Source: Geobacteraceae bacterium
GTDB taxonomy: Bacteria; Desulfobacterota; Desulfuromonadia; Geobacterales; Pseudopelobacteraceae
DNA length: 64,000 nucleotides
Assembly: GCA_036732725.1 (NCBI GenBank)
Contig: DAINBV010000012.1
Location: 13,524-77,523 of the forward strand
Reading direction: 5' to 3'
Below the pieces are notes generated by a model, which was given only the letters and a program-made list of their open reading frames with translations, searched no databases and was not told where the DNA came from. How positions within the stretch are numbered: position 1 is the stretch's first letter; each line of letters starts with the position of its first letter. The translations under genes were made by a program, and so were the position numbers. Shown here one piece after another: positions 16,981-55,538 of the stretch.

Positions 16981-18774
16981 ATGCATCACGGTGGTATCTA
17001 CGCAGAAGAAATAACCGGAAAAGTGTACGATACGCGGCTGCTACTCAGATTTGCCCGCTATGTCCGTCCCTATGGCAGGTCAGTGATGTTGGTACTGCTG
17101 ATCCTTCCGCTGGTGGCGGCATGTCGTTTGGCCCACCCCTACATCATCAAACTCGCCATTGACAGCCATATTATCCCCGGCAAGCTGGCCGGCCTGGAAA
17201 CCATCGCACTCCTGTTTATCGGCATTCTCCTGACCGAATCTCTGTTGTCATTTGTGGAAGTGTATTTGCTGCAATCGGTGGGACAGCAGGTCATGGCTGA
17301 TATGCGCATCGAATTGTTTGATCATGTCGAACATTTGCCGGTGGCATGGTTTGATCGTGTACCGACCGGAAGCGCCGTCACCCGACTGACCAGCGATGTG
17401 GAAGTGGTGGGAGAACTGTTCGCATCCGGCATCATCACGATCGTAGGTGATATCCTGTTGCTGATCGGGATCGTGTCGGTCATGCTCTGGATGAACCCTA
17501 AACTGTCGTTGGTAACATTTTCGGTGCTCCCCATACTCGCCTATGTCACCTACACCTTTCGCCGGCGGATGAGACAATCGTTTCGCGAGGTACGCGCCCG
17601 GCTCGGCAGCCTCAACTCGTTTCTGGCGGAAAGCATCGGTGGCATCAGTATCATCCAGAGCTTCAACCGGGAACGGGACGAAGAACGACGATTCCAGGAG
17701 CTGAACGCCTCCTACCGTGATGCCAACATGCCGGTTATTTTCTGGGATGCCTCGTTGTATGCCCTGGTGGAGGCGCTCTCCTCACTGGCCATTGCCCTGA
17801 TAATCTGGTACGGCGGTGGTCAGATCGTCCAGGGAACCTTGACCTTCGGGGTACTGGTGGCATTTATCCAGTACATCGAAAAGTTTTTCACACCAATCCG
17901 TGACCTGTCAGCCAAGTATTCGGTAATGCAAGGGGCAATGGCTGCCTTGGAACGGATTTTTGCGCTACTGGACACTGACCGGGAAGACAAGCGGGAACCG
18001 GCTCTGGAGAGCGGCGTTCAACTCCCGGCAACTGATGCGCAGCAATCATCCCCCCTGGTTCCGCTGATCGAATTCCGCGACGTGACCTTTTCCTACCGCC
18101 AGGATGAATTGGCACTGGAACAGTTCAATCTGACCATACAACGGGGGGAACGGGTGGCACTGGTGGGAGAAAGCGGGGGTGGCAAGACTACCGTCACACG
18201 CCTGCTGACCCGCTTGTACGATGTACAACAGGGGGATGTGCTGTTGGATGGCATATCGATCCGCAATCTGTCGCACCAGCAGTTGCGTCGCCGGATCGGA
18301 GTTGTCCTCCAGGATCCGTGTCTGTTTGCCGGCAGCATCGAATTCAACATCTCCCTGGGAGACGAAGAAACGCGCCAACGGGTTCAAGAGGCGGCAGCCG
18401 TGGTGGGAGCTGATCGTTTTATCGAGCGCTTGCCGAACGGTTACCAGGAGGAAATACGGGAGCGGGGCAACAACCTCTCCTCGGGAGAAAAGCAGTTGAT
18501 TTCTTTTGCCCGGGCAGTTGCTTTTCAGCCGGAGATACTGGTGCTTGACGAAGCAACCGCCAGTGTCGATTCAGCGTCCGAGCAGATGATTCAGGAGGGG
18601 ATGAAAGCATTGATGCGGGGACGAACCACACTGGTTGTGGCGCATCGTCTCTCGACGATTGTGGACGCCGACCGGATTGTGGTGATCCATCGTGGCAGGA
18701 TTGTGGAACAAGGTACCCATGATCAGCTGTTGCAATTGCGTGGGGGCTATTTCCGCATGCACGAACTGCAGTAG
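16981..18774 (+). CDS. ABC transporter, fused permease/ATPase (MsbA/multidrug-exporter type)
   Basis: Six-TM N-terminal half. Walker A GESGGGKTT, signature LSSGEKQ, Walker B ILVLDEATS. Confidence 0.9.
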   Translation: MHHGGIYAEEITGKVYDTRLLLRFARYVRPYGRSVMLVLLILPLVAACRLAHPYIIKLAIDSHIIPGKLAGLETIALLFIGILLTESLLSFVEVYLLQSVGQQVMADMRIELFDHVEHLPVAWFDRVPTGSAVTRLTSDVEVVGELFASGIITIVGDILLLIGIVSVMLWMNPKLSLVTFSVLPILAYVTYTFRRRMRQSFREVRARLGSLNSFLAESIGGISIIQSFNRERDEERRFQELNASYRDANMPVIFWDASLYALVEALSSLAIALIIWYGGGQIVQGTLTFGVLVAFIQYIEKFFTPIRDLSAKYSVMQGAMAALERIFALLDTDREDKREPALESGVQLPATDAQQSSPLVPLIEFRDVTFSYRQDELALEQFNLTIQRGERVALVGESGGGKTTVTRLLTRLYDVQQGDVLLDGISIRNLSHQQLRRRIGVVLQDPCLFAGSIEFNISLGDEETRQRVQEAAAVVGADRFIERLPNGYQEEIRERGNNLSSGEKQLISFARAVAFQPEILVLDEATASVDSASEQMIQEGMKALMRGRTTLVVAHRLSTIVDADRIVVIHRGRIVEQGTHDQLLQLRGGYFRMHELQ

Positions 18775-18786
18775 AGTGTCAGCACC

Positions 18787-19586: not shown

Positions 19587-19961
19587 TTAGGCTTGTCCTG
19601 CCGGTGGATTGTTTTCAAAGGCAGCGTGAGCTTTCTGCAACTCTTCTACTTCACGTAGTTTTTCTCCCATCCAGGCATGAAACACACGGGCGTTTTCATA
19701 GCTCATGACCACACCGGTATCAACATAACGAACCATGCTGGCGGCAAGATCTTCCGGTTCAACTTCGGTTTCTTTCCCGACCGTACCTTCGGGGGTGATT
19801 TCATGGGTTATGGATTCAGGAAGCGGCTGACGCTCAAGGTAAAAATTGATTACCATTTCACCACGCGGCGAGAACCCACCCTGCGCACCGTTGGCATAGC
19901 TCGGGTTGTAGCCATAGTTGAAGATATACTTGAATTTTAATTCCGGTTTACGCTGACTCAT
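19587..19961 (-). CDS. Hypothetical protein (124 aa; possibly DUF3467-like)
   Basis: ATG 19961 is preceded by AAGGAG, and the stop lies 2 nt from the DUF3108-like start. No catalytic motif recognised. Confidence 0.45.
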   Translation of the reverse strand: MSQRKPELKFKYIFNYGYNPSYANGAQGGFSPRGEMVINFYLERQPLPESITHEITPEGTVGKETEVEPEDLAASMVRYVDTGVVMSYENARVFHAWMGEKLREVEELQKAHAAFENNPPAGQA

Positions 19962-20103
19962 ACAAAAGCTCCTTTTTTGATTGATAAAACCTGCCCTCTT
20001 TCTTATCACAGCTTCGTTACCGGATAAAATAAAATCTTGCAAAAATATTGCGCCAGACCTATAAGAGACTGATATAGTCTTTTATAAAATCAGGAGTTTG
20101 ACA

Positions 20104-32964: not shown

Positions 32965-33546
32965 CTACACCGGACGCCCTTGTCGTTCCTGCACTGCTAC
33001 GACCTGAACAGGAACTTTCAAACCCGACAGGTCATGGTACAGCTGTGCTAAAAAACGGATCGTCACCAGCCGATGAATGGCGGCCTGGGTCAGACGATAG
33101 AGCCAACGACGGAGCAATGAGGGGCGCGAACTCCCCAGAAGCAGGGGGCAATAATCGGAGAGCTGCAACGAGACCTTGACCCCACCCGCCATCGTTTCAA
33201 CCCCAAAGCGTACTTGACCGCGATGGCACTGCCGGCGTTGCACCAGCAGACCGCCGCAAATTCTGATCACCAGATCATCACCCTCACGAACTGCAGGGAG
33301 GAAGCTGATCAAGGGAGCTTTTTGATATCCTAACAAACGAAATTCAATACCACTTTCAGCGATGGCCGGACGAATGACCGACCATGTGGCGCTGCGCAGA
33401 TACCCCAAATATCGTTCCAGCAAGATTACCGGTGTCAGATCACAGGCGATTTCGGCGGGAAACAATGACCATTGCACGGAAAAAATTGATGAATCTTCCA
33501 GCAGAACCTGCTGACACGCTATTTGCTGATGGCGACGATTCCCCAT
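32965..33546 (-). CDS. Hypothetical protein (193 aa)
   Basis: The ORF lies downstream of the beta-barrel gene on the same strand. ATG 33546 is chosen to avoid overlapping that gene; the track start at 33687 would overlap by 100 nt. No motif recognised. Confidence 0.4.
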   Translation of the reverse strand: MGNRRHQQIACQQVLLEDSSIFSVQWSLFPAEIACDLTPVILLERYLGYLRSATWSVIRPAIAESGIEFRLLGYQKAPLISFLPAVREGDDLVIRICGGLLVQRRQCHRGQVRFGVETMAGGVKVSLQLSDYCPLLLGSSRPSLLRRWLYRLTQAAIHRLVTIRFLAQLYHDLSGLKVPVQVVAVQERQGRPV

Positions 33547-33586
33547 CGTTACCCTGCCTTGGCTACAACCGTTACGCCCATACTCG

Positions 33587-34483
33587 CTACCATCCCAGAT
33601 CCAGCGAAAATCTGAAGAACGGAGCAGAATCAAGCCGCAGATCGGGGCGATTGCCATCATAAAAGCAAAGGGAGCGATCAAAGGCATACCCGGCAGCAGC
33701 GGTCAATTTGACCGGCTCGACCGGAAGATAGCTGACACCGCCCGAGATCTTGTAATCATTGTATTTGATCACCGAGGCTCCCACCAGGCTTTTGTTAACA
33801 TCATATTCATCACTGGCAAAATCACCTGCCAAAAACAGCCGTAGCTGGCGGGAGGCAATGTACGTGATTGCCGGACGCGGCATAATCGCATCAAAACGCC
33901 ACTGGGAGTTGGGCTGGTAACTGAAACCGAGTGCCGGAATAAAATTGCCGGCTTGATAGCCAATGCGGTACAGCAAACCGCCAATCAGGGTAAAGCCGTT
34001 ATCAAAACCATATCCCCCCAGCGCCAGGAGCGGTATACGGAGTCTGCTTCCGCTTCCCCCGTCAAAATCACTGTTCAAGCCGGGAACAACGGTAAACGAG
34101 GCAAAGGCCTGTGACGAAAAACGGTAGCGGCTGCCAAGCTCAAGCGACACGGCATACAGATCATGTGGTAAGGCCACGCTTGATGGCGCCTCAATCTGCT
34201 TGAGCCCATAGCCGCCACCGATGCTGAAGCTTAAACGGTCATCCACATGCTGGTTGCGACTGAGCTTGAAACGATAATCGGTGATGGCTGCATCGGCAGT
34301 AGTGCCATGCAGCTCGGCTGCCGGCAAGAGCTGAATTGAGGCCGAAAGATCCCAGTTGCTGGCTGCCCGCACCGTTCGTTGCTCGGCTTTCGGTTCCTGT
34401 TCGGCGGCAAAAGCCGGGCGGATGGTTACTAACAACAGAAAGAACGCCATCAGAATGCGGTGATACCTGTCTGTACGGCACAT
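33587..34483 (-). CDS. Putative outer-membrane beta-barrel protein
   Basis: Signal peptide (...LLLVTIRPAFA/AEQE), alternating amphipathic beta-strand pattern, and C-terminal aromatic residue (FRFSLDLGW). Confidence 0.5.
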   Translation of the reverse strand: MCRTDRYHRILMAFFLLLVTIRPAFAAEQEPKAEQRTVRAASNWDLSASIQLLPAAELHGTTADAAITDYRFKLSRNQHVDDRLSFSIGGGYGLKQIEAPSSVALPHDLYAVSLELGSRYRFSSQAFASFTVVPGLNSDFDGGSGSRLRIPLLALGGYGFDNGFTLIGGLLYRIGYQAGNFIPALGFSYQPNSQWRFDAIMPRPAITYIASRQLRLFLAGDFASDEYDVNKSLVGASVIKYNDYKISGGVSYLPVEPVKLTAAAGYAFDRSLCFYDGNRPDLRLDSAPFFRFSLDLGW

Positions 34484-38604: not shown

Positions 38605-39180
38605 TTATTTATCAATTGTGAATTCAGCTCTTCTGTTTTTTGCCCAGGCTGCTTCGTCATGTCCCTCAACAGCTGGCTTTTCCTTGCCATAGCTGATGAC
38701 AGAGAGACGGTCAGCTTTTACACCAAGGGTCAACAGGTACTGCAGGGCAGATTTTGCACGACGCTCACCAAGTGCCAGGTTGTATTCAGCAGAACCACGC
38801 TCATCGCAATGACCTTCAATTTTGATTTTTGCATCAGGAGTTGACTTCAACAGGATATCAGCATTTTTGGAGAGAACTTCACGGGCATCCTGACGCAGCT
38901 CTGATTTGTCAAAATCAAAGTAAACGGTTTCAAACGATGCGGCAGCAGGTGCTGCTTTGGCAGCCTGCTGTTCAACCGGCTTGGGAGCTTCTGCTTTTGG
39001 CTGTACAGCTTCCTGTGCAACCGGTTTCGGTGCTTCCGGCTTGGCTGGTTCCGGCTTTGGCTCAGCCTTGGTTACGGGTGCCGGTTCTTCTGCCTTGACA
39101 GCTTCCTTGTTGGCACAACCAGCTGCCAGTAAAGCTGCCATGCTGACTGCTGCGACGAGAGCTACGGTGGTTTTTTTCAT
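38605..39180 (-). CDS. OmpA-family peptidoglycan-associated lipoprotein (Pal-like)
   Basis: Lipobox LLAAGC and a Pro/Lys/Ala-rich linker. OmpA_C domain has FDFDKSELR...GHCDERGSAEYNLALGERRA. ATG 39180 has RBS GAAGGAGA. Confidence 0.8.
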   Translation of the reverse strand: MKKTTVALVAAVSMAALLAAGCANKEAVKAEEPAPVTKAEPKPEPAKPEAPKPVAQEAVQPKAEAPKPVEQQAAKAAPAAASFETVYFDFDKSELRQDAREVLSKNADILLKSTPDAKIKIEGHCDERGSAEYNLALGERRAKSALQYLLTLGVKADRLSVISYGKEKPAVEGHDEAAWAKNRRAEFTIDK

Positions 39181-39468
39181 ACTCAATTCTCCTTCAAACG
39201 TTATTTTTGAGGCAAGTGCCTGTCTCAATTCAATTTCATTGGTGTGACTGGGCGAATTATACACAACAAATAGCGTTTTGCAATGGCTAATACATTTATT
39301 TTTGAATCAATTAATATATTGCAGAAAGTGGCAAGCTACATGAGCAGAGGATCGTGCTTGTCACCTCCCATCAGCAAATCTTCTTTACAGAACAGCTCTT
39401 TTTCAGGTAATACCGCCACAGGCTTTAGATTCAACTCAATACTCAATCGCACTCGCAAGGGGAATACC

Positions 39469-43784: not shown

Positions 43785-44741
43785 ATGCTGACATCCCGAA
43801 GCCATGACACCATGCACACCCCAACCGTCGACATTGTAGTTCCTGTCTGGAACAACCCCTTTGAAACCCGCGCCTGCCTGGCCGCTCTGCTGGAACACTC
43901 ACCAGACGCCCGCCTGATAATCGTTGCCAATGGAAGCAGCCGTGAAACGGAACTGATGCTGGAAGAATTTTCCGAAGCATTGGGAGAGCGCGGACTTTTC
44001 CTGATATCCGATCGCAATCTCGGCCTGGTTGCCGCGCTCAACCGCGGACTGGCCCGCTCCGACAGCGACCTTGCCATCATTGTTCACCCCATGACACTCG
44101 TCTCTACCGGCTGGCTGCAATGCTTGTTGACAGCTGCAGAGGCGCCCCAGGCCGGCATAGTTACCCCGATCTTTCACGGTGACGGCATGCCCCAGGTCAC
44201 ACCGCCGGTTAAGGGGTGCAGCCAGATGGAGACCTGTTCACTCTCATTTTCAGCACTGCTGTTGCAGGGAACGATGCGCATGCTGATCGGTGGTTTTGAT
44301 GAGGGGTTGGATGGAGGAGAATGGTGCCTGGCCGATTACCGGCGACGGGGAGAGCAGGCCGGCTATCACAGTTACGTCACAGCAAAGGTCAACCTGTACT
44401 GCCGGGGGGATCAAAGTTTTGGCTTTGGCTCACTGCAACGCCGGCAGCAACAACGTGAAGCAAGCTCTCTCATATGCCAGCAACGGTGGGGGACAACCGA
44501 GGAACTGTGCCTCTATCCCGGAAAACAGGCCACGCCGGAGGAAATTGAAAAGCTGATCGAACAGGCACTGCCGGCCGCCCGGCAGGGAAACACGGTTATC
44601 CTGCTGCTGCACTGGCAGCAACATCGGGAGTGCTGCAAACGCGGCTGGCATGGGGTGCATACCGGCATTATCCTCTCCCGTCTCCCCCTGATCGGCGCAC
44701 GGGATGCGCTCAAGCGAATCACTACCACCCCCACGCTCTGA
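43785..44741 (+). CDS. Family-2 glycosyltransferase
   Basis: VDIVVPVWNN...CL.ALL....D.RLIIV.NGS...T and N.G...A.N.G motifs of GT2. Start uncertain (43785 or 43812; no clear RBS). Confidence 0.75.
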   Translation: MLTSRSHDTMHTPTVDIVVPVWNNPFETRACLAALLEHSPDARLIIVANGSSRETELMLEEFSEALGERGLFLISDRNLGLVAALNRGLARSDSDLAIIVHPMTLVSTGWLQCLLTAAEAPQAGIVTPIFHGDGMPQVTPPVKGCSQMETCSLSFSALLLQGTMRMLIGGFDEGLDGGEWCLADYRRRGEQAGYHSYVTAKVNLYCRGDQSFGFGSLQRRQQQREASSLICQQRWGTTEELCLYPGKQATPEEIEKLIEQALPAARQGNTVILLLHWQQHRECCKRGWHGVHTGIILSRLPLIGARDALKRITTTPTL

Positions 44742-44853
44742 TTATTACATTTTTGCGTACATGCTTCGCGACAGATCCTGGCACAACCATGAAAATATTG
44801 CATAGCTGCCACAATTAGTCATGTAACAAATTATCATCATTACACATTGCATT

Positions 44854-44869
44854 TGGCATTATCTGTGCT
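44854..44869 (+). promoter_or_regulatory. Candidate sigma-54 (-24/-12) promoter of the pilin-like operon
   Basis: TGGCATTATCTGTGCT: GG (44855-56) and GC (44867-68) are separated by exactly 10 nt (consensus TGGCAC-N5-TTGCW). It lies about 93 nt upstream of ATG 44962. Confidence 0.35.
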
Positions 44870-44961
44870 TACACTATCTACGCTTGTCACCATAAAGCTG
44901 AAACCATCCCGTTTGATCTGCAGACAAATCATTACGGACGATTCATTTTATAGAGGTTGAA

Positions 44962-45438
44962 ATGCATTCCATGACTACTCAAAAAAGCATCAATACAACG
45001 GCAAAGCCAAAAACAAAAGGTTTTACGTTGATAGAATTACTGGTAGCGCTGGTTATTGTCAGCATCAGTTTCATGGCCATCCTTCCTTTGCTCTGGAATA
45101 CCATGAATGTGAACAAAACAACGGATCTTGGAGTAAAGGCTCGGGATTATGCCACTCAAAAAGTTGAAGATTTAATGTCCAGATCCCGTGGAGAAATTGA
45201 CCCTCTTGTAGACAATACAGATAGAGAATTTAAAAGCAGTGGAGAGTACCTGTCTCTAAAAGGTGATGTGCTTACTTCTATAACTGACCCAAATAAAGTT
45301 TTTACACGTACTTGGGGCATAAAAGAAGTTCCAGGTGTTACTGTTGACCCCAAACCGGTAATTTTTACGTGTGTAGTCTCGTATACCTACAAAGGCCAAA
45401 CTCGAACAAGGTCGTTTAGCACCTTGTGGAGCTTCTGA
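44962..45438 (+). CDS. pilV: Type IV minor pilin, PilV-like (prepilin-type N-terminal cleavage/methylation domain)
   Basis: KTKG/FTLIELLVALVIVSISFMAILPLL: class III signal with Gly-1, Phe+1, Glu+5. The leader of 17-20 aa is unusually long. Confidence 0.75.
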   Translation: MHSMTTQKSINTTAKPKTKGFTLIELLVALVIVSISFMAILPLLWNTMNVNKTTDLGVKARDYATQKVEDLMSRSRGEIDPLVDNTDREFKSSGEYLSLKGDVLTSITDPNKVFTRTWGIKEVPGVTVDPKPVIFTCVVSYTYKGQTRTRSFSTLWSF

Positions 45439-46640
45439 TGTGTAAATCAAAGCGACTAAACAATTTAGGCTTCACGTTGATTGAGGTGATTATATCGCTG
45501 GCGTTCTTTGGCTTGCTCATGGGTGCCGTATATTCAACCTTTGGCATTATTGGTGATCAAGTAGCTAAAACTAGTACAGAAAATTTACTATCAGACAAAG
45601 GCCAGCGAATTTTAGCGTTCATGGAAGAAGACCTACGCATGATCGGACACCTGTTGCCAACAGAAGCACAAATTCCTATTTGCACGACCAACACACCACC
45701 TGGTTCAGCTTCCACCAATTCCAATCTGATAACATTTCAAAAAGGTACCGTTCCTTCCAACGCTAAGGATCCGGGTCCATATGATAAATTTACGTTTATT
45801 ACATCGGAACCGGTTCGCATTAAAGAAAACACCACATCATGCATGACAGGTCAAAAAGATGCCGCAGGAACCATCCGCAGCGATTATTATTTGTCCACGA
45901 TAGGAACAAACCAAAGATGTTCAAATGATGACACCATCAATTGTAATGATGATACAGCATGTGGTGCGGGTACATGTCAGATCCTTGCCAAGGTAGAGGT
46001 TGATGCAGGCTCTACTTGCTACGAGGATGAAATTGCAGCTGTCAGTGGTTCTGCCAATGGGCGCTCCTTTGTTACCTTTGAATTCGCAGACAAAGTGTTT
46101 TATTCACTAAAATCCATCGGAAATATCCTAACGGTGAATGAATCGCCAGACCGGCGTATCCAGGACAATGCTACCGTGTACAGCGTACGTCAGTACAGCT
46201 ACCAAGTTGATACAACAGGTGGTAAACGGAATTTACGTCGCATCGGCTGGGATACGGATTGTGCAACAGCAGGCGACATGATTTCCAATCTGATCACAAC
46301 GGCAGACACAGCAAATAAAGCTGGCGGAGTAGATGCTTTACAATTTGAGTTTACCAGTTATGACCAAAACGCTACCACCGCCAGCCAGTTAATTAATACA
46401 ACAAAAGCAGTTCCGGAACCATCAAACCTGCGATACATAAAGATATGGTTACTGTTGAGAGCTGATAAGGCGGACAAAAACTATATAAATACCGATACCT
46501 ATACGCTTGGCACGACAACATCCGGCTACTATGCTGACGGTTCAACACCGATCATAAAAGGTCCCTACAACGACAGCTACCGCAGAGTCCTTGTAAGTAA
46601 AATCGTGGAGGTAAGGAATCTTGCGCCCATATCGCATTAA
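45438..46640 (+). CDS. pilW: Type IV minor pilin, PilW-like, enlarged (about 400 aa)
   Basis: MCKSKRLNNLG/FTLIEVIISLAFFGLLMGAVYSTF prepilin signal. The ATG overlaps the upstream TGA (TGATG). Typical PilW proteins are smaller. Cys-rich insert at aa 161-200. Confidence 0.7.
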   Translation: MCKSKRLNNLGFTLIEVIISLAFFGLLMGAVYSTFGIIGDQVAKTSTENLLSDKGQRILAFMEEDLRMIGHLLPTEAQIPICTTNTPPGSASTNSNLITFQKGTVPSNAKDPGPYDKFTFITSEPVRIKENTTSCMTGQKDAAGTIRSDYYLSTIGTNQRCSNDDTINCNDDTACGAGTCQILAKVEVDAGSTCYEDEIAAVSGSANGRSFVTFEFADKVFYSLKSIGNILTVNESPDRRIQDNATVYSVRQYSYQVDTTGGKRNLRRIGWDTDCATAGDMISNLITTADTANKAGGVDALQFEFTSYDQNATTASQLINTTKAVPEPSNLRYIKIWLLLRADKADKNYINTDTYTLGTTTSGYYADGSTPIIKGPYNDSYRRVLVSKIVEVRNLAPISH

Positions 46641-47247
46641 AAACATTATTGATAATCAGCAGGGGATTGCCCTTATTTCAGCCCTACTGATTACACTTCT
46701 GTTGACACTTGTTGTTGTTGCACTTTCTTACCGGGTTGGAATGCTCAGCCTTGGAGCGCGAGACCATGTTATCAAAAGCCAGAGTATCTATACTGCGGAA
46801 GTAGGCCTAAACAAGGCACGCTATTTCCTCCACGCAGGTGATTGTGACCCGGGTAAGTTTGAAGCCTGTATCCCTGGGCTCAACTACAATTCTTTTGTCA
46901 ACATCTCAACTGCTATCAAAGGTGTTTTTACAACAGCCACCAAACCGGGAAAAATTACGCTTGGTGGTGTTGACTTTGACTATGACAGTCCCGGTTCTCT
47001 CTCTGCTGACCTCAATACTTCCAACTACACTGTCTATGCAAAACGAAGTAATCTGGGGAAAGTGATCCATATCATGGCCGTTTCCTCACGACCTGGTTCA
47101 AAAGAGGGCGATATGACTCAGACTATTATTGATGCCGGGTTGTTGTATGACGATGAATGCAACGATTCAAAACAAAAAGGCGGAAGTGCTGCGCGAAAAG
47201 GAAAATATTGTAGCGATGTAACATCACTTACTGCGGCTAACAGATAG
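46621..47247 (+). CDS. pilX: PilX-like minor pilin (PilX N-terminal domain)
   Basis: NQQGIALISALLITLLLTLVVVALS...IYTAEVGLNKARYFL matches the PilX_N pattern (QxG-A-L, no Phe+1). TTG start with GGAGG RBS; 20-nt overlap with the upstream gene. Confidence 0.65.
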   Translation: MRPYRIKNIIDNQQGIALISALLITLLLTLVVVALSYRVGMLSLGARDHVIKSQSIYTAEVGLNKARYFLHAGDCDPGKFEACIPGLNYNSFVNISTAIKGVFTTATKPGKITLGGVDFDYDSPGSLSADLNTSNYTVYAKRSNLGKVIHIMAVSSRPGSKEGDMTQTIIDAGLLYDDECNDSKQKGGSAARKGKYCSDVTSLTAANR

Positions 47248-47257
47248 GAGGAGAATC

Positions 47258-50200
47258 ATGAATTTTATAGGTAACAAATTACGCATACTGGCTATTGCAA
47301 CAATAGCATTGCTCGTATCAGTTATTCCCTCATTGGCAACGGACAGAACCTTCAGCACCGGATCATATATTATCTCCGCTGATTCTTGCTGGCAACCAAA
47401 TGGAGATACAAAGAACACAACCAATGCCATTGGCTGTGACACAAATACGAATGATCAGTCGATTTTTCAGGTATACGGCTTATTATACGCTTTGCTAGAC
47501 ACCGGCGACCAACCTGACAAATGCGAAAATAATGATGGTTCCATGCCACAACAAAAAGCCATGCTCGGGTATTGCAAACAAGTCAAAGTATACTGGGTAA
47601 TAAAAGCCGACAAGGCATCACCACATGATGTGGATTTACAGTTAACAACCATTGATACTGCCATAAATCCGATTGTATCGATCTATAATAGCGCAAAAAC
47701 AGGAGCCGGCAATTCAACGCAGGCGGTAAATTACCGCGGTGGCCCATTTGTCATTGATGCCAATGGTATAACAGACGCAGAGTTTGCCACTATTAAAACA
47801 AAATTTCCCGCAGTAAAGATCCATAAAGCAAATATAGGCTTTTCGGGTAATGTCGATAAGGTTTTGATTGGGAAACCACCTAAAATTGGTGTGTTGAGCG
47901 AGGGCAATAGTGATGTTCTTGAGGATTATATTCGTGCAGCAGGACAATTTGCCTGGAAAGGAGTTGTTTTCCAGTATGTCGGTGCGCGGGATATTATCGC
48001 CGGATGTCTACAAGATCCTATTCCTGCCACTTGCCTAGCCAGAAATGCAACCAAAGCGAATGCTAATAAAATTACCGTGCCATTTCAATTGCTCTGGGCA
48101 CCGCATTGGGAAATTGAGAACAAGTGGACTGGCGAAAGCACAACACCATCTGCTGCAGACCAAACATCTGTCGTTGCCGAAATCAGGGCTTTCCTTGAAA
48201 GGGGTAATTCAGGATTCTTTGAATGTGCCTCAATCGGTAGTTTGGAAGCGTCGCATTCGGTTACAGATATTGGGATGAGTGTTTCAGCCGGCACGGGGGG
48301 ATTTCTTGTTTCAAACACAAAAACAGTACCCCGCCTTGAAGTAAACAAGGGCTGTTTTAAAGGCTACAACAACCCAAACTCAAAAGACTGTACCAGCAAT
48401 TATATCGTGCCGGAGGCAGTACCGTTTTGGCTGACACAATGTGGCGGATGGGACTACAAGCCGACAAGTGGCCTGATAGATAGTATGCGCCCAGTGTATA
48501 ACACTACAACACCGGCGAACTCCTATACTTATTTAACAACCAAAATGGCAAACGATTCGGGTACAACTGTGGATGACCGATATGTCGGCACACAGATGAC
48601 ACGTTTTCTCCATGATGATTCTACCAAGCTGAACACCGCTTACACCGATGGTACTGATCATTATCACGTATATGACTATCTAGTCGGCGGTAGAATTAAC
48701 GGGTCGCCCACCCAGGGATACCTGATTTATTTCCCTGGCCATAAATATATTTCCTGCAAGAACAGCACAACATTTGCGTATCCGCCGTCACGTACACTTG
48801 AAATTTCATTCGACGCCATAACTCCTGTAAAGGATCCCCTGTTGAGCGGCATCGTTCCTGAAAATAGCATCATATATGCCGAGATTGTACATGCAAATTG
48901 TACACAAGGAAGCACCTGTCCCAAAATCAGTTATAATTTGACGACCAAATCAGGAACAAGATCAGCAGACACCTGGGTTGACGCAAGTGCTGAATTTGCT
49001 ACCTACAACACCGTAACAAACAAGCTGGAAGGGGTCTTTTTTACCAGTGCATTTGCCGAAGCAACTCTAACCTCACTTTTGGTAAGTGATATTTATGTGA
49101 CCTATGATAGCAATACAAATAATACAAAACTGTCAAGTATCGTTGATGTGACAGATGCATCTGCAACAATCACGCTGTGCACACCTCCGTCCCCCGGAGA
49201 TAGTACGACGCCATCATCTGTAACAGTCAACTGTTCATCAAGTGGTGTCGTACCGAACTCCATCAATTTACAATTTGATGGCAACGTTGATGTTGGAACC
49301 CGTCTGATCAATATAACCGCAAAAACCAGCACCGGTTCTGCTGTCGGAACCTATGACTTGTCAACCAACACCGGATCAGGCGCTACAAGTGCGGGAGGAG
49401 TTACCCTTGATTTAAGTACCGCAAGCTATGATGCACTTGCCTTTACGTTAAAAAATGTAAAAATGTACCCGACAGCAAGCTGTGCAGCTGTTAGTTTAAC
49501 AGATTTTAGTGCTGATTTTCCCGGCGGGTCAACCAAACTAACGCAGGTAACCAATACAACCACCAGTAAGACACTCTGTTCACCTGGTGTTACCTCGCCG
49601 GCCAGCTGTACTTCGGTGGCTGCAACGTCATCAGCCGGAACGATTACTATCGCAACGGAGCTTCAATTCAAAGAACGCTATGTTGATGATTACCTTAAAA
49701 ATACAGCCAGTGACTCTGAAATCACACTGTCAATAAAATACAGCTGCGGCAGCGGTTGCAGTGGAACAGTTAGTAATAAATATAAGCCAAAAACCACAAA
49801 CACAGGTAATCCGACTGGAAACTTGACCGATACTGATACATATCTTCGTATTGATTCAAGAACCGCATATTTTGGTACAGGTGACAACAGATACATTCTG
49901 AAAGATATTTTTCTGACTAATAAAAATTCTTCCAAGACGGTTACGATAACTGAAGTAAGTGTGACCTTTGCGGATCATAAGGAAGGCAGTATTTTTACTA
50001 CTCAGAAGTTATATAAGTTGCGCGATACGACGAACAATGCGGATATTGTTTCTGATAGCAACGGAAAAGCATCAGTAGCGTCCTGGACCGGTAAAAGCTA
50101 TGAAATCAAGAACGGCTCAAGTGGCGGTGGTTCAACCACTTGGAGCTATAGCATGAGTGCCGGGACATGCAATTACTATCTTGGTCCTTATTTAAGTTAT

Positions 50201-52387
50201 TGCGATATTAACTGGTCAGGTTCAAATACCTGCGGTGTGAAATATGTTCTTAATACATTTTTGGCTCTCAAGTATCAATCAACAACAGCAGAATTTTCAA
50301 AAACCCAACCACTTCTAAAAGATGGCATTGTCTATTCCAGCAGTTTTGATTACCCCAGTTATCGCGGGCATCTTAAGATGAAGAAATTGCCGACAGGCTC
50401 TCAAACAGCTACAACGCTTGTATGGGATGCGGCTTCCGCCATGCCAACAGCGGGTACGAGTGGATTTCCGTCTGCTCCTTTGAGCTCTACCGATACAAGT
50501 TCGCCTCGCTATATTTTCACAAACCTGCCTGATGCTGTGCCCGACTCATCGACCGGTTTTATTACGCCAATCAAATTTGATCCTGTCTCTTTTGCAGCGC
50601 TTGACAGTACCACCAAGGCCTCATTTAAAACGGCTATTCAGGCTAGTTCTGATAACGATGCCAAGGTAACCATCAATACGGTACGAGGTAGAAAAAATGC
50701 ATCAACACAGGATATTTACACCGGAACTGCAAATTGTAGCACCGGCACAGCTGACGGTACTATTGACACAGATGGTTGCGCAGAAGATTCAAAGCGTTTG
50801 TGGGCAATAGAGAACTCTACACCGGTGTTAAAAGTCAAATCTAAACATATAGAAGCGACTACAACGACTGCCATAACCACTGGGCGAGACCGTCGGGATC
50901 GATTCCTGTTTGTTGGTGCTGATGATGGCATGTTGCACGCTTTCTGGGCAGGCTCATTCAACGCAACGACACAGAGTTATCCTGATACCGCTTCTGGCAA
51001 AGGTACTGGCAAAGAGACATGGGCATATATCCCGTCAGCTCTACTTAGTAATTTAAAAAATCAGCCATTTAACCCAGATCCTGCCAATGAAAGCTCTTTT
51101 GAGCCAAAAGTAAAAGTCGATGGTTCGCCAGCCATGAATGATTTTCTATACTGTGCTGCAAAAGATCTGGTCGGCAATTGCAGTTCATGGAAATGGCGAA
51201 CCATTCTGGTAGGAACAGCTACTGACAATACGGTTAACAAGGGAATTGTTTTTGCTTTGGATGTTTCCGATCCATATTCTCCAAAGATCATGTGGGAAAA
51301 AACATACAACAAAACATCCGACTCTACCTGTAAGGGAACGTCAAGAAACTGTAATATGGGATACTCAAAAGGCGTTGCGATCGGTACAGCACAGATTGGT
51401 ACCGAAATGAAAGACTACGTCTTTTTAACATCCAGTTGGATCTATAAGAAAAAAGCTATTGTTGATGGTTCAGGCAAGACGACCGGCTATTCACTTTGCA
51501 CCACCGATACCACTGGTTGTACGTTTGGAATTAGTGGCTATGCGCTGGATATTTTTACCGGTGACGTAAAATGGGAAACGTCTTTACCTTATACAGCCGA
51601 TTCCGTAAACATCAATGATCCACCCGCCTCTCCTGCGCTTATGGATCGCGATAACAATGGTACTGTTGACTATGCAATTTTTGGAGATATGCAGGGTAGA
51701 TTGTGGGCATTACGAACAACTGATGGCACAAACCTCACTGGAGCAAATCCGGTATACCAAATTAAAAAACTTGATGCCACTACCGGTAAAGATACGACTG
51801 TAAATGCAAACTCATCCGAGCCAATTGCTGCGCCGGTAGCAATCAGTAAAGATTTGATAGTACTTGCAACCGGTGGAGCTGATTATGCTCTTGATACTCA
51901 AAAATATCGTGTCGAAGTAGTGCGTTTAAGTAATACGGGCGCAACGAAAGATAAAGACAGTAGTGGTAATGACATGATGACCGTAATTACTGATGCCGGT
52001 GAAAAAATTTGGGCGCAACCGGCAATAGCTAACAATAATAAAGTTCTTATAGGTACTGCAAAAAGCTATTACTCGAATCAGACGGTATCTTCATTACAGA
52101 GTACCGGTAGAATTATCCAGATCAACTTGAGAGAAACTCGCGCTGCTGGTACGACGTCGAATGTCAAGTATGCTGGAGGTACAAATACCGCTGATCAATG
52201 GTTTACTGGCGGCTTTGTTGGCGGTTTTGACCTTGATAAGGGGCAGGCTGTGATCGGAACACTCAAACCCTCAAAAGATTCTTCAGGCACAACTACAGAC
52301 ATGATCCTATTAGGTGAAATAAGTACAACAAGTGGCGCAACTGGCAAGGTGAATCCCTACAAAATTTTGTGGTGGAGAAAATTGTGA
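47258..52387 (+). CDS. pilY1: Giant (1709 aa) PilY1-like pilus-tip protein: signal peptide, about 1000 aa uncharacterised N-terminal region, C-terminal PilY1/PilC beta-propeller with Ca-binding loop
   Basis: Strong RBS AGGAGGAG and signal peptide ...VIPSLA/TD. The C-terminal hallmark motifs are RFLFVGADDGMLHAFWAGS, VDGSPAMNDF, WRTILVGTA, GIVFALDVSDP, and DRDNNGTVDYAIFGDMQGRLWAL. Confidence 0.8.
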   Translation: MNFIGNKLRILAIATIALLVSVIPSLATDRTFSTGSYIISADSCWQPNGDTKNTTNAIGCDTNTNDQSIFQVYGLLYALLDTGDQPDKCENNDGSMPQQKAMLGYCKQVKVYWVIKADKASPHDVDLQLTTIDTAINPIVSIYNSAKTGAGNSTQAVNYRGGPFVIDANGITDAEFATIKTKFPAVKIHKANIGFSGNVDKVLIGKPPKIGVLSEGNSDVLEDYIRAAGQFAWKGVVFQYVGARDIIAGCLQDPIPATCLARNATKANANKITVPFQLLWAPHWEIENKWTGESTTPSAADQTSVVAEIRAFLERGNSGFFECASIGSLEASHSVTDIGMSVSAGTGGFLVSNTKTVPRLEVNKGCFKGYNNPNSKDCTSNYIVPEAVPFWLTQCGGWDYKPTSGLIDSMRPVYNTTTPANSYTYLTTKMANDSGTTVDDRYVGTQMTRFLHDDSTKLNTAYTDGTDHYHVYDYLVGGRINGSPTQGYLIYFPGHKYISCKNSTTFAYPPSRTLEISFDAITPVKDPLLSGIVPENSIIYAEIVHANCTQGSTCPKISYNLTTKSGTRSADTWVDASAEFATYNTVTNKLEGVFFTSAFAEATLTSLLVSDIYVTYDSNTNNTKLSSIVDVTDASATITLCTPPSPGDSTTPSSVTVNCSSSGVVPNSINLQFDGNVDVGTRLINITAKTSTGSAVGTYDLSTNTGSGATSAGGVTLDLSTASYDALAFTLKNVKMYPTASCAAVSLTDFSADFPGGSTKLTQVTNTTTSKTLCSPGVTSPASCTSVAATSSAGTITIATELQFKERYVDDYLKNTASDSEITLSIKYSCGSGCSGTVSNKYKPKTTNTGNPTGNLTDTDTYLRIDSRTAYFGTGDNRYILKDIFLTNKNSSKTVTITEVSVTFADHKEGSIFTTQKLYKLRDTTNNADIVSDSNGKASVASWTGKSYEIKNGSSGGGSTTWSYSMSAGTCNYYLGPYLSYCDINWSGSNTCGVKYVLNTFLALKYQSTTAEFSKTQPLLKDGIVYSSSFDYPSYRGHLKMKKLPTGSQTATTLVWDAASAMPTAGTSGFPSAPLSSTDTSSPRYIFTNLPDAVPDSSTGFITPIKFDPVSFAALDSTTKASFKTAIQASSDNDAKVTINTVRGRKNASTQDIYTGTANCSTGTADGTIDTDGCAEDSKRLWAIENSTPVLKVKSKHIEATTTTAITTGRDRRDRFLFVGADDGMLHAFWAGSFNATTQSYPDTASGKGTGKETWAYIPSALLSNLKNQPFNPDPANESSFEPKVKVDGSPAMNDFLYCAAKDLVGNCSSWKWRTILVGTATDNTVNKGIVFALDVSDPYSPKIMWEKTYNKTSDSTCKGTSRNCNMGYSKGVAIGTAQIGTEMKDYVFLTSSWIYKKKAIVDGSGKTTGYSLCTTDTTGCTFGISGYALDIFTGDVKWETSLPYTADSVNINDPPASPALMDRDNNGTVDYAIFGDMQGRLWALRTTDGTNLTGANPVYQIKKLDATTGKDTTVNANSSEPIAAPVAISKDLIVLATGGADYALDTQKYRVEVVRLSNTGATKDKDSSGNDMMTVITDAGEKIWAQPAIANNNKVLIGTAKSYYSNQTVSSLQSTGRIIQINLRETRAAGTTSNVKYAGGTNTADQWFTGGFVGGFDLDKGQAVIGTLKPSKDSSGTTTDMILLGEISTTSGATGKVNPYKILWWRKL

Positions 52388-53076
52388 GAAACATAAACGG
52401 ATTTACATTGGTAGAATTGCTGGTAGTAATTGCCATCATGGCTATTGTGGCTGGTTTAGCTTCGCCGCCTTTGCTTGAGATGTACCGAAAAAGCAAAATA
52501 GAGGATCGTGCCAGTACATTACAAGAAACGTTTAAATGGGCTCAGGTTCAGGCTGTTAAACGAGGTGAGGCAGAAATCAATACCGATCCTGCAAAGTGTA
52601 CCGATGCGACTCGAACCGATGGGACAGGCGCTATCATAAAACAAAAATATTATATAGCCTTAAACCCCACAACCAATGCATACAAGATCGTACAATGGCG
52701 CGATGCAAACTGCAATAATCTCAAAGAGGATACAACAACACCGAGCGAGTTTTCCGTTCTTCAGGAAGGCTCGCTCGGTGAGTCGTACTTTGGTATTACC
52801 GGTACAGTGAATCTGACCGCTTGTGACAATGCAGGGACAAGAACATCTGGTTCAGGAGTAATGCCTAATTTTACCGCGTCTACTTGTCCAAGCGGGATAG
52901 CAATTTTTAGCGGATATCAATGTTCAAGCCTTAACGGCAAAGGGTTCGTAGATGCGATGAAATATTCAGCCGCGTATATTACAAATGGAAAAGCCAACTA
53001 TGCCGTTGCACTAAATCCTGCTGGCATTACAACGCTTTGTCTCTGGAATGGTACTGGTTGGCAATTTGTACGTTAA
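52369..53076 (+). CDS. GspH/FimT-family pseudopilin (type IV minor pilin)
   Basis: NING/FTLVELLVVIAIMAIVAGLA prepilin signal, followed by a FimT/GspH-like segment (ASTLQETFKWAQVQAVKRGE). Start is GTG at 52369 or at 52384; the latter makes a GTGA overlap with the pilY1-like stop. Confidence 0.7.
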   Translation: MVEKIVRNINGFTLVELLVVIAIMAIVAGLASPPLLEMYRKSKIEDRASTLQETFKWAQVQAVKRGEAEINTDPAKCTDATRTDGTGAIIKQKYYIALNPTTNAYKIVQWRDANCNNLKEDTTTPSEFSVLQEGSLGESYFGITGTVNLTACDNAGTRTSGSGVMPNFTASTCPSGIAIFSGYQCSSLNGKGFVDAMKYSAAYITNGKANYAVALNPAGITTLCLWNGTGWQFVR

Positions 53077-53153
53077 ATTTGAAACCGCCTGAAGCAATGA
53101 CCGCCTATTCAAAAACGTTCCGTATGCATATATGAGCTGTATTTGTAAAGAAA

Positions 53154-55538
53154 TTACCCCCGCAAGCTGACCACCGTAGCACCATCACGCCCTTCATAGG
53201 CATCCCCTGGCCGGCAGGAATCGACCAGGGGATGCCGCTCCAGAAATTCCCGCACCGCATCACGCAAGCGCCCCGTGCCGAGTCCATGAATCACCCGAAC
53301 TTCACGCATTCCCGCAAGTGCCGCCTGATTGAGAAACGGCTCCAGCCGCTCCAGCGCCTCATCAACCCGCAAGCCGATCAGCTTGATCTCGCGGGCATCA
53401 CTCTCCCCCGCATCCAACTGCCAGCCACGGCTATTGCTCGGCTGTGGGGCACTTCTTTTTTTCTTCTCCGGCACAGCCTTAGATGGCGCCGACAGATCGG
53501 CCAGCGTGACCTCAAGCTCCATGCGCCCTGCCCTGACACGAACCTTCCCCTGTTTTTCCTGTTGCTGTACCACCACCCCGCTACAATTGAGCGAACGGAT
53601 AAAAACCGCATCTCCCGGTTTGACAACGGTAAGCGGCGTTTGATCCCGCTCCTGTTCCTGACGGGGGGTAAGCTCTTCCGCCAACTGCTGCTGGGCGGAG
53701 CGCAACCGATCAACAGTCTCAGCCCGATGTTCCCGCTTGTACTCCTCCAGCAGTTCGTTCATCTGACGACGACTGGAGGCAATCAACTCGCGGGCCTCCT
53801 GCCACCCTTTTTCCCTCGCCTCGCGGCGTGCTGTTTCGATGCTAGCGGCACGTTCTTCCACATCACGCCGGGCAACGGCCAGTTCATGCTGCTGCCGTTC
53901 CAGATCTCTGGCGCTGCTGGCCAGTTCGTCCCGTTTGCGGTGTAGCTCCGCCAGCAAGGCGGTAAACTCTTCCCCGGCCGAACCGAGCAACTGACGGGCA
54001 TAGGCGATTACCCGCTCGGGCATCCCATAACGCACGGCAATGTCAATGGCATGGGAATGCCCCGGTTCACCGCTGATCAAACGGTACAGCGGGGTGTAAC
54101 TGGCAGCATCGTATTCCATGCCGGCATTGATCATGCCGGGAGAGCGATGCACAAAACCGATGATTTCCGACAAATGGGTTGTGGCAACCACCAACGCCCC
54201 GTTATTCTTCAACTCATGCAGTACACTGCAGGCGATGGCTGCCCCCTGGTGCGGTTCGGTTCCCGCCCCCAGTTCATCCAGCAGCACCAACGACCTCCCG
54301 CCGGCCTGGCCGATGATTTTGGCCACCCGCGCCACATGGGCCGAAAACGTGGAGAGACTCTGTTCGATCGATTGCTCGTCACCAATATCAACCAACAGAG
54401 TATCCAGGAGCGGAAAGACCGACCGGGCACCGTTGGCGGGAACCGGCAGACCGCACAGCGCCATGACCGTCAGGATACCGGCGGTTTTAAGGGCAATGGT
54501 TTTACCACCGGCATTGGGACCGGTAATCACCATCACTCTCCCCGCTTCCCCCAACTGCAAATTGAGCTGTTCCACCTGTGGCAATATTTTCTGGCGCTGG
54601 AGCATCAACAACTGGGGATGGCGCGCTCCATCCAACAGCAGCTCGGCTGAATCCCGAACCTGCGCGTTTTCCAAACCGTACTGATCGGCAAAGAGAGCTA
54701 CCGAAGCAAGATAATCAACAGTCACCAAGGTTTCAAAACAGCCGTTGATGGCATCACTATCCTCCCGCAGCCAGGCGGAAAGTTGGCGCAATATCCTGAT
54801 TTCCTCGCTCTTTTCCTCAGCCGCCAGATTTTCCAGTTCATTGACAAAGGGGATAATTTCCAACGGCTCCATAAAGGCGGTTTCACCGGATGAGGAGACA
54901 TCATGCACCACCCCCTTGACCATACCTTTAGAATCCATTCGTACCGGAATGACCCAGCGGCCGCCCCGTTGGGTGATAAAGTCTTCCTGTAGAAAGATTT
55001 CAATATCGTTGGCACGCACGATTTCCTCGATCTTCTTGCGAATCCGGGCCGCCAGGGAGCGCTTTGCCCGGCGGATTTCCTTAAGTGCCGAAGAAGCGCC
55101 GTCTTTGATGCTCCCATCGCTATCAATGGAGGCAATCAACGGTTCCAGCAGATCCGCAAAGGGGATCAGCGCCGGTTCCAGCGCTTTCAGCAGCGGCAGG
55201 TCGTTGCGCGGGGTAAGCTGGCGGTGGAGTGAGGCAAACAGTTGCAACGGTGGAATAAAGGTCAGCAATTCATGCGTGGTCAGCAATGCGCCCTGGGGGC
55301 GCAGCCGCTCCAACAGCGGCCGGATATCATCAAACTGCTCCAGCCGCAGGGCGATTCCGAGACGTGCCAGACCACGCAGTTCCGCAATCCGGCCACTTAC
55401 TCGTTCTATCTCTTCGACCATGTGGTACGGGATGGTTGCCAGCAGCCGCTCGGCGGTCACATCGCTGTGGCACTGTCCGGCGATGGCATGCAATATTTTA
55501 TCAAATTCAAGCCGTTTCAGGGTTTCCTGATCTATCAT
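53154..55538 (-). CDS. mutS2: Endonuclease MutS2 (MutS domain + C-terminal Smr)
   Basis: Walker [16 protein letters not shown], long coiled coil, KOW-like region. C-terminal Smr domain ([10 protein letters not shown]...[13 protein letters not shown]). Confidence 0.9.

Follow-up and report, generated by a model that had tools for sequence, protein, structure and literature searches.

Composition and gene content of the AT-rich block

In a Geobacteraceae metagenome contig, we analysed a stretch of 64,000 nucleotides (nt; hereafter the window), in which an AT-rich block at 44742–53153, between a gene for a GT2 glycosyltransferase and mutS2, carries five genes on the forward strand for four pilin-like proteins and a giant PilY1-like protein. 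The guanine-plus-cytosine content (G+C) was 0.435 in the block and 0.551 in the remaining window; per 1-kb bin it was 0.42–0.46 within the block and 0.54–0.58 in the adjoining flanks. An initial annotation of this DNA had described a fall from about 60% to 35–43%, in which the drop itself was correct but the figures on both sides were exaggerated. Its placement of the edges at the stop codons of the GT2 gene (44741) and mutS2 (53154) was borne out by 200-bp bins, in which the shift lies no more than about 100 nt from either stop. The G+C at third codon positions (GC3) was 0.38–0.42 for the five block genes versus 0.636±0.059 for the 42 other genes of the window, and at first codon positions (GC1) 0.46 versus 0.61. 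In codon usage, the block lies at a distance of 0.338 from the native gene pool, whereas single native genes lie at 0.12–0.19 from the same pool. The difference is not only an effect of amino-acid content, since GC3, GC1 and codon usage are all foreign. Run within the window, the comparison of G+C and codon usage by which the view of a foreign block could be checked sets it apart from the native genes.

Four of the five genes encode proteins with pilin features. Gene 1 (44962–45438, +) encodes a prepilin of 158 amino acids (aa) in the PilV/GspI position, with the prepilin motif G/FTLIE and a match to PF07963 of 35.3 bits. Against the PilV model TIGR02523, it reached 28.1 bits with a cut-off of 52.2, and the aligned part covers its N-terminal 54 residues only; the PilV label of gene 1 is putative and is drawn from N-terminus, size and position only. 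Gene 2 (45438–46640, +; 400 aa from the ATG at 45438, with an alternative GTG start at 45426) encodes a PilW-type minor pilin, which matched PF16074 over residues 295–398 with 32.8 bits (cut-off 26) and PF07963 with 22.7 bits, and carries GFTLIE. Gene 3 (46621–47247, +; 208 aa) encodes a PilX/GspK-type minor pilin that matched PF14341 with 27.5 bits (cut-off 25.5). Its mature N-terminus, IALIS, has Ser at +5 and no Glu5, and pilins of the PilX/GspK class typically lack Glu5 (PMC7541494). Gene 5 (52384–53076, +; 230 aa from the GTG at 52384, with an alternative start at 52369) encodes a FimU/GspH-class minor pilin with GFTLVE and a PF07963 match of 34.2 bits. The window copy of gene 5 is itself under the Pfam threshold for PF12019 (GspH), which 7 of 12 members of its family match, and a sequence-profile search against the PDB gave a match confined to the common pilin α1 helix. 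In the AlphaFold2 (AF2) model of gene 5, which has a predicted local distance difference test score (pLDDT) of 82, the best five Foldseek matches were all to Pseudomonas aeruginosa FimU (4IPU/4IPV), with a probability of 1.0 and template-modelling scores (TM, target) of 0.59–0.66, and these were the only significant fold matches. The FimU fold and the PF12019 matches in the family support the GspH/FimU class for gene 5. The pilins of the block also show weak N-terminal similarity to the GspH, GspI, GspJ and GspK models of NCBIfam.

Gene 4 encodes a PilY1-like protein of 1709 aa, with 31 Cys. Its C-terminal part, residues 1208–1709 (50879–52387, +), is a PilY1 β-propeller region that matched PF05567 with 35.8 bits (cut-off 28.1) over residues 1208–1487 and, in phmmer, the C-terminal domain of P. 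aeruginosa PilY1 (3HX6) with E = 1.4e-6. An EF-hand-like Ca2+ loop, DRDNNGTVD, at residues 1463–1471 (51644–51670, +) is the sole such match in the protein; it aligns to DNNSDGVAD of 3HX6 and is followed in both by the common DYAxxGDxQGxLW. The N-terminal part, residues 1–1207 (47258–50878, +), consists of a signal peptide and an unclassified region, the presumed tip adhesin. None of 25 family members had a Pfam match in this region, a fold search with residues 1–1200 against the PDB gave no significant match, and self-BLAST of the protein detected no internal repeats. The AF2 model of the region, with a pLDDT of 66.7 and confident blocks, suggests an α/β domain at about residues 30–320 and an array of β-sandwiches at about 510–950. 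Many Cys, Trp and Gly positions of this region are invariant among homologues.

The genes are tightly packed. Genes 1 and 2 overlap by 1 nt (TGATG), genes 2 and 3 by 20 nt, and genes 4 and 5 by 4 nt (GTGA), while genes 3 and 4 are separated by a gap of 10 nt that contains AGGAGG. A GGAG-type ribosome-binding site precedes each of the five starts. As read from these junctions, the five genes are translationally coupled. The initial annotation had recognised the five reading frames on one strand but had taken all of them to overlap, which does not apply between genes 3 and 4. Of the identities that it gave, PilW, PilX_N and PilY1 lie above the Pfam cut-offs and the FimU/GspH assignment of gene 5 is backed by fold, whereas gene 1, called PilV-like, stays below the cut-off of TIGR02523 (28 bits with a cut-off of 52). 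With gene 1 as the putative PilV, every class of protein in a type IVa minor-pilin/PilY1 complex is represented at the locus, and the block probably specifies a complete priming-and-tip module, made of the GspI, GspJ, GspK and GspH classes together with a giant PilY1.

Allele comparison with a close relative

A cluster look-up identified L172, a contig on which a MutS2 of at least 90% identity stands with a PilY1 homologue of only 55% identity. L172, a Logan contig, and a second contig, L173, come from the same metagenome sample. Together they are syntenic with the window, from MiaA to MreB and GT2 on the left and through MutS2, ArfB, PlsC, RnhA, GlmU, a GGDEF/EAL protein, TatD and Ppx on the right, and a cassette lies in the same slot between GT2 and mutS2. 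The nucleotide identity was 94.2% over 11,406 nt of the left flank (to L173) and 93.4% over 9,352 nt of the right flank (to L172), and flank proteins were 88–100% identical. In contrast, the cassette proteins were identical at 63% (gene 1), 42% (gene 2), 53% (gene 3), 55% (gene 4) and 49% (gene 5) of residues. The alleles also differ in composition: GC3 of the relative's allele was host-like (0.55–0.65, with 0.64–0.71 in its flanks), versus 0.38–0.42 for the window allele. The codon usage of the latter was closest to that of the cassette on L082 (distance 0.10), whose host is of low G+C. By global alignment, the window PilY1 shares 57% identity with the L172-type group and 58% with the L082 allele, and it stands alone on a long branch in the tree built from this alignment. 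An identity matrix from local high-scoring segment pairs (HSPs) was asymmetric and was dropped in favour of the global alignment and a neighbour-joining tree.

The transitions between conserved and divergent sequence are sharp. On the left, high identity to L173 extends through the GT2 gene and the whole AT-rich leader of 220 nt (44742–44961, +; 37.7% G+C, 77–93% identity in 60-nt bins) into about 180–220 nt of gene 1, which encode the signal peptide and the α1 helix; the first 50 aa of gene 1 are about 95% identical to those of L173. The identity then falls in a sliding window from 93% to 70%, 55% and 40% within about 150 nt, which places a left recombination breakpoint zone at 45080–45200, and the blastn HSP ends at 45179. 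On the right, the 77-nt spacer that contains the other breakpoint (53077–53153) has 17% identity to the relative, that is, no similarity, and the identity rises from 17–67% to 92–97% exactly at the mutS2 stop (53153/53154), with no gradient inside mutS2. Since the leader is shared with the close relative, it pre-dates the swap, and since L173 also has the left 400 nt or so (leader and 5' part of gene 1), at about 85–93% identity, these lie outside the imported segment. The acquired block therefore does not begin at 44742, where the initial annotation had set its left limit. Likewise, its proposal of a horizontally acquired island stands with regard to the foreign composition, but not with regard to insertion into a naive site, because the slot of the relative is filled by a divergent cassette.

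Comparison of the slot across relatives gave no clean empty site. A search for one that was anchored on mutS2 in genomes and metagenome contigs returned only relatives of 55–68% identity, in which synteny breaks at the 3' end of mutS2. In more distant relatives (L088, L001 and L002), other genes and no cassette lie downstream of mutS2. The left flank is also rearranged in these distant relatives, so that they provide no clean empty site. In L001 (63% MutS2 identity), a GspE/PilB-type ATPase of 644 aa is encoded directly downstream of mutS2 (L001:12397–14331), with the Walker A motif GPTGSGKS in its translation. In L174 (71% MutS2 identity), a low-G+C tip cluster lies downstream of mutS2 (L174:13571–21371) in the order Y1-U-V-W-X, encoding a Big_5/PilY1-like protein of 1617 aa, a GspH-type pilin and three further proteins (114, 428 and 225 aa), of which that of 225 aa starts with a PilX-like N-terminus. 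The orders Y1-U-V-W-X (L174), V-W-X-Y1-U (window) and U-V-W-X-Y1 (Pseudomonas) are cyclic permutations of one another, which holds for all known orders. The 3' neighbourhood of mutS2 may be pilus-related more widely in Geobacteraceae.

The cassette family

The gene 4 protein has full-length homologues, with identities from 58% down to about 31%. The order V-W-X-Y1-U and similar gene sizes were found in eight loci of two phyla, from Geobacteraceae to Thermodesulfovibrionales, in unrelated neighbourhoods. That the order departs from the Pseudomonas fimU-pilVWXY1Y2E arrangement, as had been noticed at the outset, is correct; it is, however, a property of the whole cassette family and not peculiar to the block. 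The cassette lies between pilD-pilS-pilR-dsbC and pilMNOPQ in L168 and between pilD-pilSR-dsbC and a 70-aa geopilin-like gene in L082. It adjoins his genes in L084, is flanked by an Rrf2 and a PfkB gene in Geomonas paludis (L086), and is found amid housekeeping genes in L169, in L170, a metagenome-assembled genome of Thermodesulfovibrionales, and in L171, a genome of 3 Mb. The member of G. paludis is annotated as 'PilC/PilY family type IV pilus protein'. Because the same loci rank nearest for all five window proteins, the cassette evolves as a unit, and the pil-cluster contexts of L168 and L082 connect the family with the type IVa pilus and not with a type II secretion system. No gspC, gspD, gspE, gspF, gspL or gspM gene adjoins any cassette examined, and tblastn detected no cassette homologue on plasmids or phages.

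The cassette G+C tracks that of the host in Geomonas (0.634 versus 0.63–0.645), L169 (55.5%), L171 (49%) and L082, whereas it is under that of the flanks in the window, L084 and L170. Low G+C as an intrinsic trait of the family is ruled out, since the Geomonas, L169 and L171 cassettes match their hosts.

Several loci carry additional genes. A gene for a DsbC-like thioredoxin lies just 5' of the cassette in L082 (6031–6828), L168 (5982–6767) and L170 (6394–7206) and is absent from the window locus; its presence in three independent loci, together with the 31 Cys of the PilY1-like protein, many of them invariant, suggests a dedicated disulfide isomerase. In L082, two Uma2-family (PF05685) genes (6850–7434 and 18195–18782) enclose the cassette together with an ABC transporter; this stretch sits between pilR/dsbC and the 70-aa N_methyl pilin and could mark an insertion in the pil cluster. 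The more distant cassettes of L169 (16179–17045) and L170 (15474–16220) have an extra gene with He_PIG/Big_9 domains after gene 5, and that of L171 is followed by an extra gene of 183 aa with no domain recorded. The sole mobility gene seen near any cassette encodes a Y1_Tnp (IS200-like) transposase and lies about 1.9 kb upstream in L171 (L171:5700–6026).

The leader and predicted regulation

The leader contains a σ54-type −24/−12 element, TGGCAT-N5-GTGCT (GG-N10-GC), at 44854–44869 (+), 94 nt before the ATG of gene 1; this pattern has two matches in the whole window. The counterpart in L173 is conserved as TGGCAC-N5-GTGCT and reads TGGCACTATCTGTGCT. Gene 1 is also preceded by related elements in L082, L169 (a perfect TGGCAC-N5-TTGC) and L170. 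The probability of at least four matches in seven by chance is about 1.6e-7 at the measured background, for a pattern that was relaxed post hoc. A generic σ54 search of the whole window with two mismatches stayed at chance level (83 found versus 87 expected), so that only the comparison across cassettes is informative for this element. Counts of σ70 promoters and terminators were likewise at chance level. The cassette is probably transcribed from the predicted σ54-type promoter, which would need an enhancer-binding activator. As the cassette lies just downstream of pilS-pilR in L082 and L168, PilR would be the obvious candidate.

Further upstream, ATGAAAATATTGCA…TGCCA at 44789–44811 (+) belongs to an inverted repeat, TGGCA…TGCCA, and points weakly to a candidate upstream activator site. 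It lies about 65–80 nt 5' of the σ54 box and recurs only in the leader of the L082 cassette, at the equivalent position; these two independent instances are the only sites in 640 kb searched on both strands. It is a possible binding site for an enhancer-binding protein.

Origin and function of the window allele

Taken together, these data are best explained by allelic replacement, in which a resident tip cassette at the conserved slot between GT2 and mutS2 was exchanged for a foreign type IVa tip module; we hold this to be likely. On the simplest reading of the two alleles, the L172-type allele would be the resident one, and the genome of the window would have received a foreign allele that took its place from mid-gene 1 through to where gene 5 ends. 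The first crossover would have taken place in the conserved 5' part of gene 1, which encodes the signal peptide and the α1 helix, and the second join in the short spacer before the mutS2 stop. Replacement by recombination would explain why integrase, tRNA and direct repeats are lacking, and with a non-homologous spacer at the right join, homology may have anchored the exchange on one side only. PilD, the major pilin and the PilBCMNOPQ machine would be encoded elsewhere in the genome. The four pilins, cleaved by PilD, would form with PilY1 a priming complex in this machine and end at the pilus tip, with FimU in the basal position and the N-terminal region of PilY1 at the extreme tip (PMC7541494, PMC13190605). 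The PilY1 propeller would dock on PilX. Ca2+ binding in the propeller would be needed for function (PMC7541494, PMC13190605).

Several points weigh against allelic replacement or narrow its basis. The comparison rests on two genomes with one close relative, and we infer the join between L173 and L172 from an overlap of 22 nt. No donor was identified, the nearest alleles being about 57% identical. The neighbour-joining tree groups the window PilY1 and the L172-type alleles in one broad clade, so that a very old divergence within that clade is possible. With regard to function and regulation, the PilV assignment of gene 1 is below the NCBIfam cut-off, the pilus machine, PilR and RpoN are assumed in the host from a 64-kb window, and the σ54 pattern was loosened after the match in the window had been seen.

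The alternative that draws most on these points is divergence in place, that is, vertical inheritance of the cassette with alleles that diverged in situ under diversifying selection, for instance by tip phages or changing substrates. The relative has the slot, the leader and the gene 1 5' end in common with the window, both PilY1 alleles fall in one broad clade, and surface adhesins often evolve fast. We nevertheless regard it as unlikely, because a GC3 of 0.38–0.42 versus 0.55–0.65 at equal flank GC3 is unexpected under a shared mutational background, because the divergence sets in stepwise within about 100 nt at both edges, with all five proteins at 42–63% and flank proteins at 88–100% identity, and because the codon usage of the window allele resembles that of cassettes of low-G+C hosts.

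Insertion of a classical genomic island is less probable still. An 8.4-kb mobile element that entered an empty site between GT2 and mutS2 by site-specific recombination or transposition would account for compositional edges that coincide exactly with gene ends, and the distant relatives L088, L001 and L002 have no cassette downstream of mutS2. However, their left flank is also rearranged, hence they are not empty sites, whereas the closest relative has a filled slot and shares the AT-rich leader; in addition, integrase, transposase, tRNA and flanking repeats are all lacking, and there is no plasmid or phage homologue.

A different function for the module, the priming of a short type II secretion-like pseudopilus (in the logic of GspH-I-J-K) in place of an extended adhesive pilus, appears similarly improbable, if not slightly more so. 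It would fit the weak N-terminal similarity of the pilins to the GspH/I/J/K models, and for PilA-N/C filaments of Geobacter, a role resembling that of a secretion pseudopilus has been proposed. On the other hand, a PilY1 propeller with a Ca2+ loop is a hallmark of type IVa pili, Pfam PilW and PilX_N matched whereas GspJ and GspK did not at cut-off, the L168 cassette lies between pilSR and pilMNOPQ, and the cassettes examined have no GspC/D/E/F/L/M neighbours. An assembly chimera, with an AT-rich block of another organism mis-joined in the metagenome assembly, could produce an abrupt change of composition in a metagenome contig but is very hard to reconcile with the presence of the same protein on two contigs (67.6 kb, JGI; 77.5 kb, NCBI), with flanks of one genome that are syntenic with L172 and L173 where a cassette occupies the same slot, and with a leader and gene 1 5' end that span the left junction and are about 90% identical to those of the relative.

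Allelic replacement could be extended, tentatively and with considerable doubt, to a slot between GT2 and mutS2 (or a mutS2 3' region) that is a dedicated exchange site at which whole tip modules are swapped repeatedly. The α1-helix segment and the σ54 leader would serve as the one-sided homology anchor, the specificity of a single machine would be re-tooled under the resident PilR and RpoN, and the N-terminal region of PilY1 would represent a new class of tip adhesin common to Geobacteraceae and Thermodesulfovibrionales. If true, the re-tooled tip specificity could concern a mineral, a partner cell or escape from tip-binding phages. The evidence for such a hot spot amounts to two alleles and a third, differently arranged tip cluster in the relative with 71% MutS2 identity (L174).

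Relation to known pilus tip modules

Systems of this kind are known, and the locus stands out by the unusual clarity of its probable swap footprint. In Myxococcus xanthus, separate, multiple and translationally coupled minor-pilin/PilY1 clusters (1–3) serve one machine (Treuner-Lange 2020, PMC7541494), some PilY1 classes are inferred to have been acquired horizontally (Mahanta 2026, PMC13190605), and the association of PilX with PilY1 through β-strand complementation has been described (PMC13190605). Like these clusters, the window cassette combines four minor pilins with PilY1 apart from the core machine, has coupled genes and a PilX without Glu5, and its PilY1 has a conserved C-terminal domain and a variable N-terminal tip domain. 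It differs in its order (V-W-X-Y1-U versus U-V-W-X-Y1), in the absence of a TfcP-like cytochrome and in the N-terminal 1,200 aa of PilY1, which have no recognisable domain (no DUF4114, vWA or lectin). Moreover, the M. xanthus clusters are paralogous within one genome, whereas here two alleles occupy one slot in near relatives.

In P. aeruginosa, the minor-pilin clusters that strains have at a single locus are of discrete types, 'PAO1-type' or 'PA14-type' (Table 6 of PMC4628258, citing Giltner 2011). The window locus resembles them in having discrete, divergent whole-cluster alleles at a fixed locus within a species group. It also shares with fimU-pilVWXY1(Y2)E the protein classes, the Ca2+ loop and propeller of PilY1 (3HX6) and, in gene 5, the FimU fold. 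Unlike that operon, the window cassette has no PilE or PilY2, the FimU-class gene comes last and not first, PilY1 is about 550 aa longer with no vWA domain detected, and the host belongs to Geobacteraceae. Moreover, the minor-pilin operon of Pseudomonas is under AlgR/FimS control, unlike the window cassette with its predicted σ54 promoter.

For Geobacteraceae, several sets of FimU, PilV, PilW, PilX, PilE as well as PilY1 have been reported, with pilus genes at distant loci (Aklujkar 2012, PMC3543383). That report contains no gene order, allele comparison, composition analysis, swap footprint, σ54 box or reach to Thermodesulfovibrionales for these sets. For Geobacteraceae and Myxococcus, the concept of an orphan tip module that serves a machine encoded elsewhere has been documented before (PMC3543383, PMC7541494). 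The family-wide order V-W-X-Y1-U, the reach to Thermodesulfovibrionales, the large unclassified N-terminal region and the conserved σ54 box with mapped breakpoints are absent from PMC7541494, PMC13190605 and PMC3543383 and from Table 6 of PMC4628258.

In its general layout, the locus also resembles O-antigen and capsule loci and the pilin island of P. aeruginosa, which have conserved housekeeping flanks and divergent, often AT-rich alleles with no integrase. Exchange at those loci proceeds via homologous recombination in the flanks, whereas the left crossover in the window lies inside the first cassette gene, in the α1 part of the pilin, and the right join in a non-homologous spacer.

Type IV pilus tips determine the targets of cell attachment and susceptibility to phages, and in relatives of Geobacter pili are tied to mineral attachment and extracellular electron transfer. 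The locus leaves the established picture of minor pilin and PilY1 action unchanged. Under allelic replacement, it would show in a clean natural case how a complete tip module passes between lineages as a unit, with mapped breakpoints and a regulatory leader that is likely shared. Its cassette family is defined by a gene order that is permuted yet fixed and by a tip domain that is large and unclassified. As the family has one cultured carrier, G. paludis, its function is directly testable.

Neighbouring genes and other features of the window

The left-flanking GT2 gene (43785–44741, +; PF00535), which lies outside the cassette, has a native GC3 of 0.66 and 94% nucleotide identity to L173. The right-flanking mutS2 (53154–55538, −; TIGR01069, 758 bits) is of native composition, convergent with the cassette and identical to L172 at 94.6% of aa and 93.4% of nt. 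The other genes are of a housekeeping kind on both sides: CopA, an RND efflux set, PurC, PriA, DegP, MutL, Lon, MiaA and MreB are encoded to the left together with GT2, and ArfB, PlsC, RnhA, GlmU, a GGDEF-EAL protein, TatD and Ppx to the right together with MutS2.

The window outside the block contains no other gene for a pilin, PilD, PilB/T, PilC or a secretin, and the three GFTLxE prepilin motifs in the 64 kb are all within the block. No tRNA was found in the window, no integrase, recombinase or transposase among its called genes, no convincing pair of repeats bracketing the block, and no Rfam family across its whole length. These gene, tRNA and repeat searches agree with the initial annotation, which had noted the absence of pilus machinery, tRNA, integrase and flanking repeats.

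Two adjacent, overlapping reading frames, at 32965–33687 (−; 240 aa) and 33587–34483 (−; 298 aa), had no Pfam match at E ≤ 1e-5. Low GC3 also occurs outside the block, in the genes at 19587–20042 (−; 0.45) and 38605–39264 (−; OmpA-like, 0.40), and the G+C of the window dips to 0.48–0.50 at 9–11 kb, 39–40 kb and 42–43 kb.

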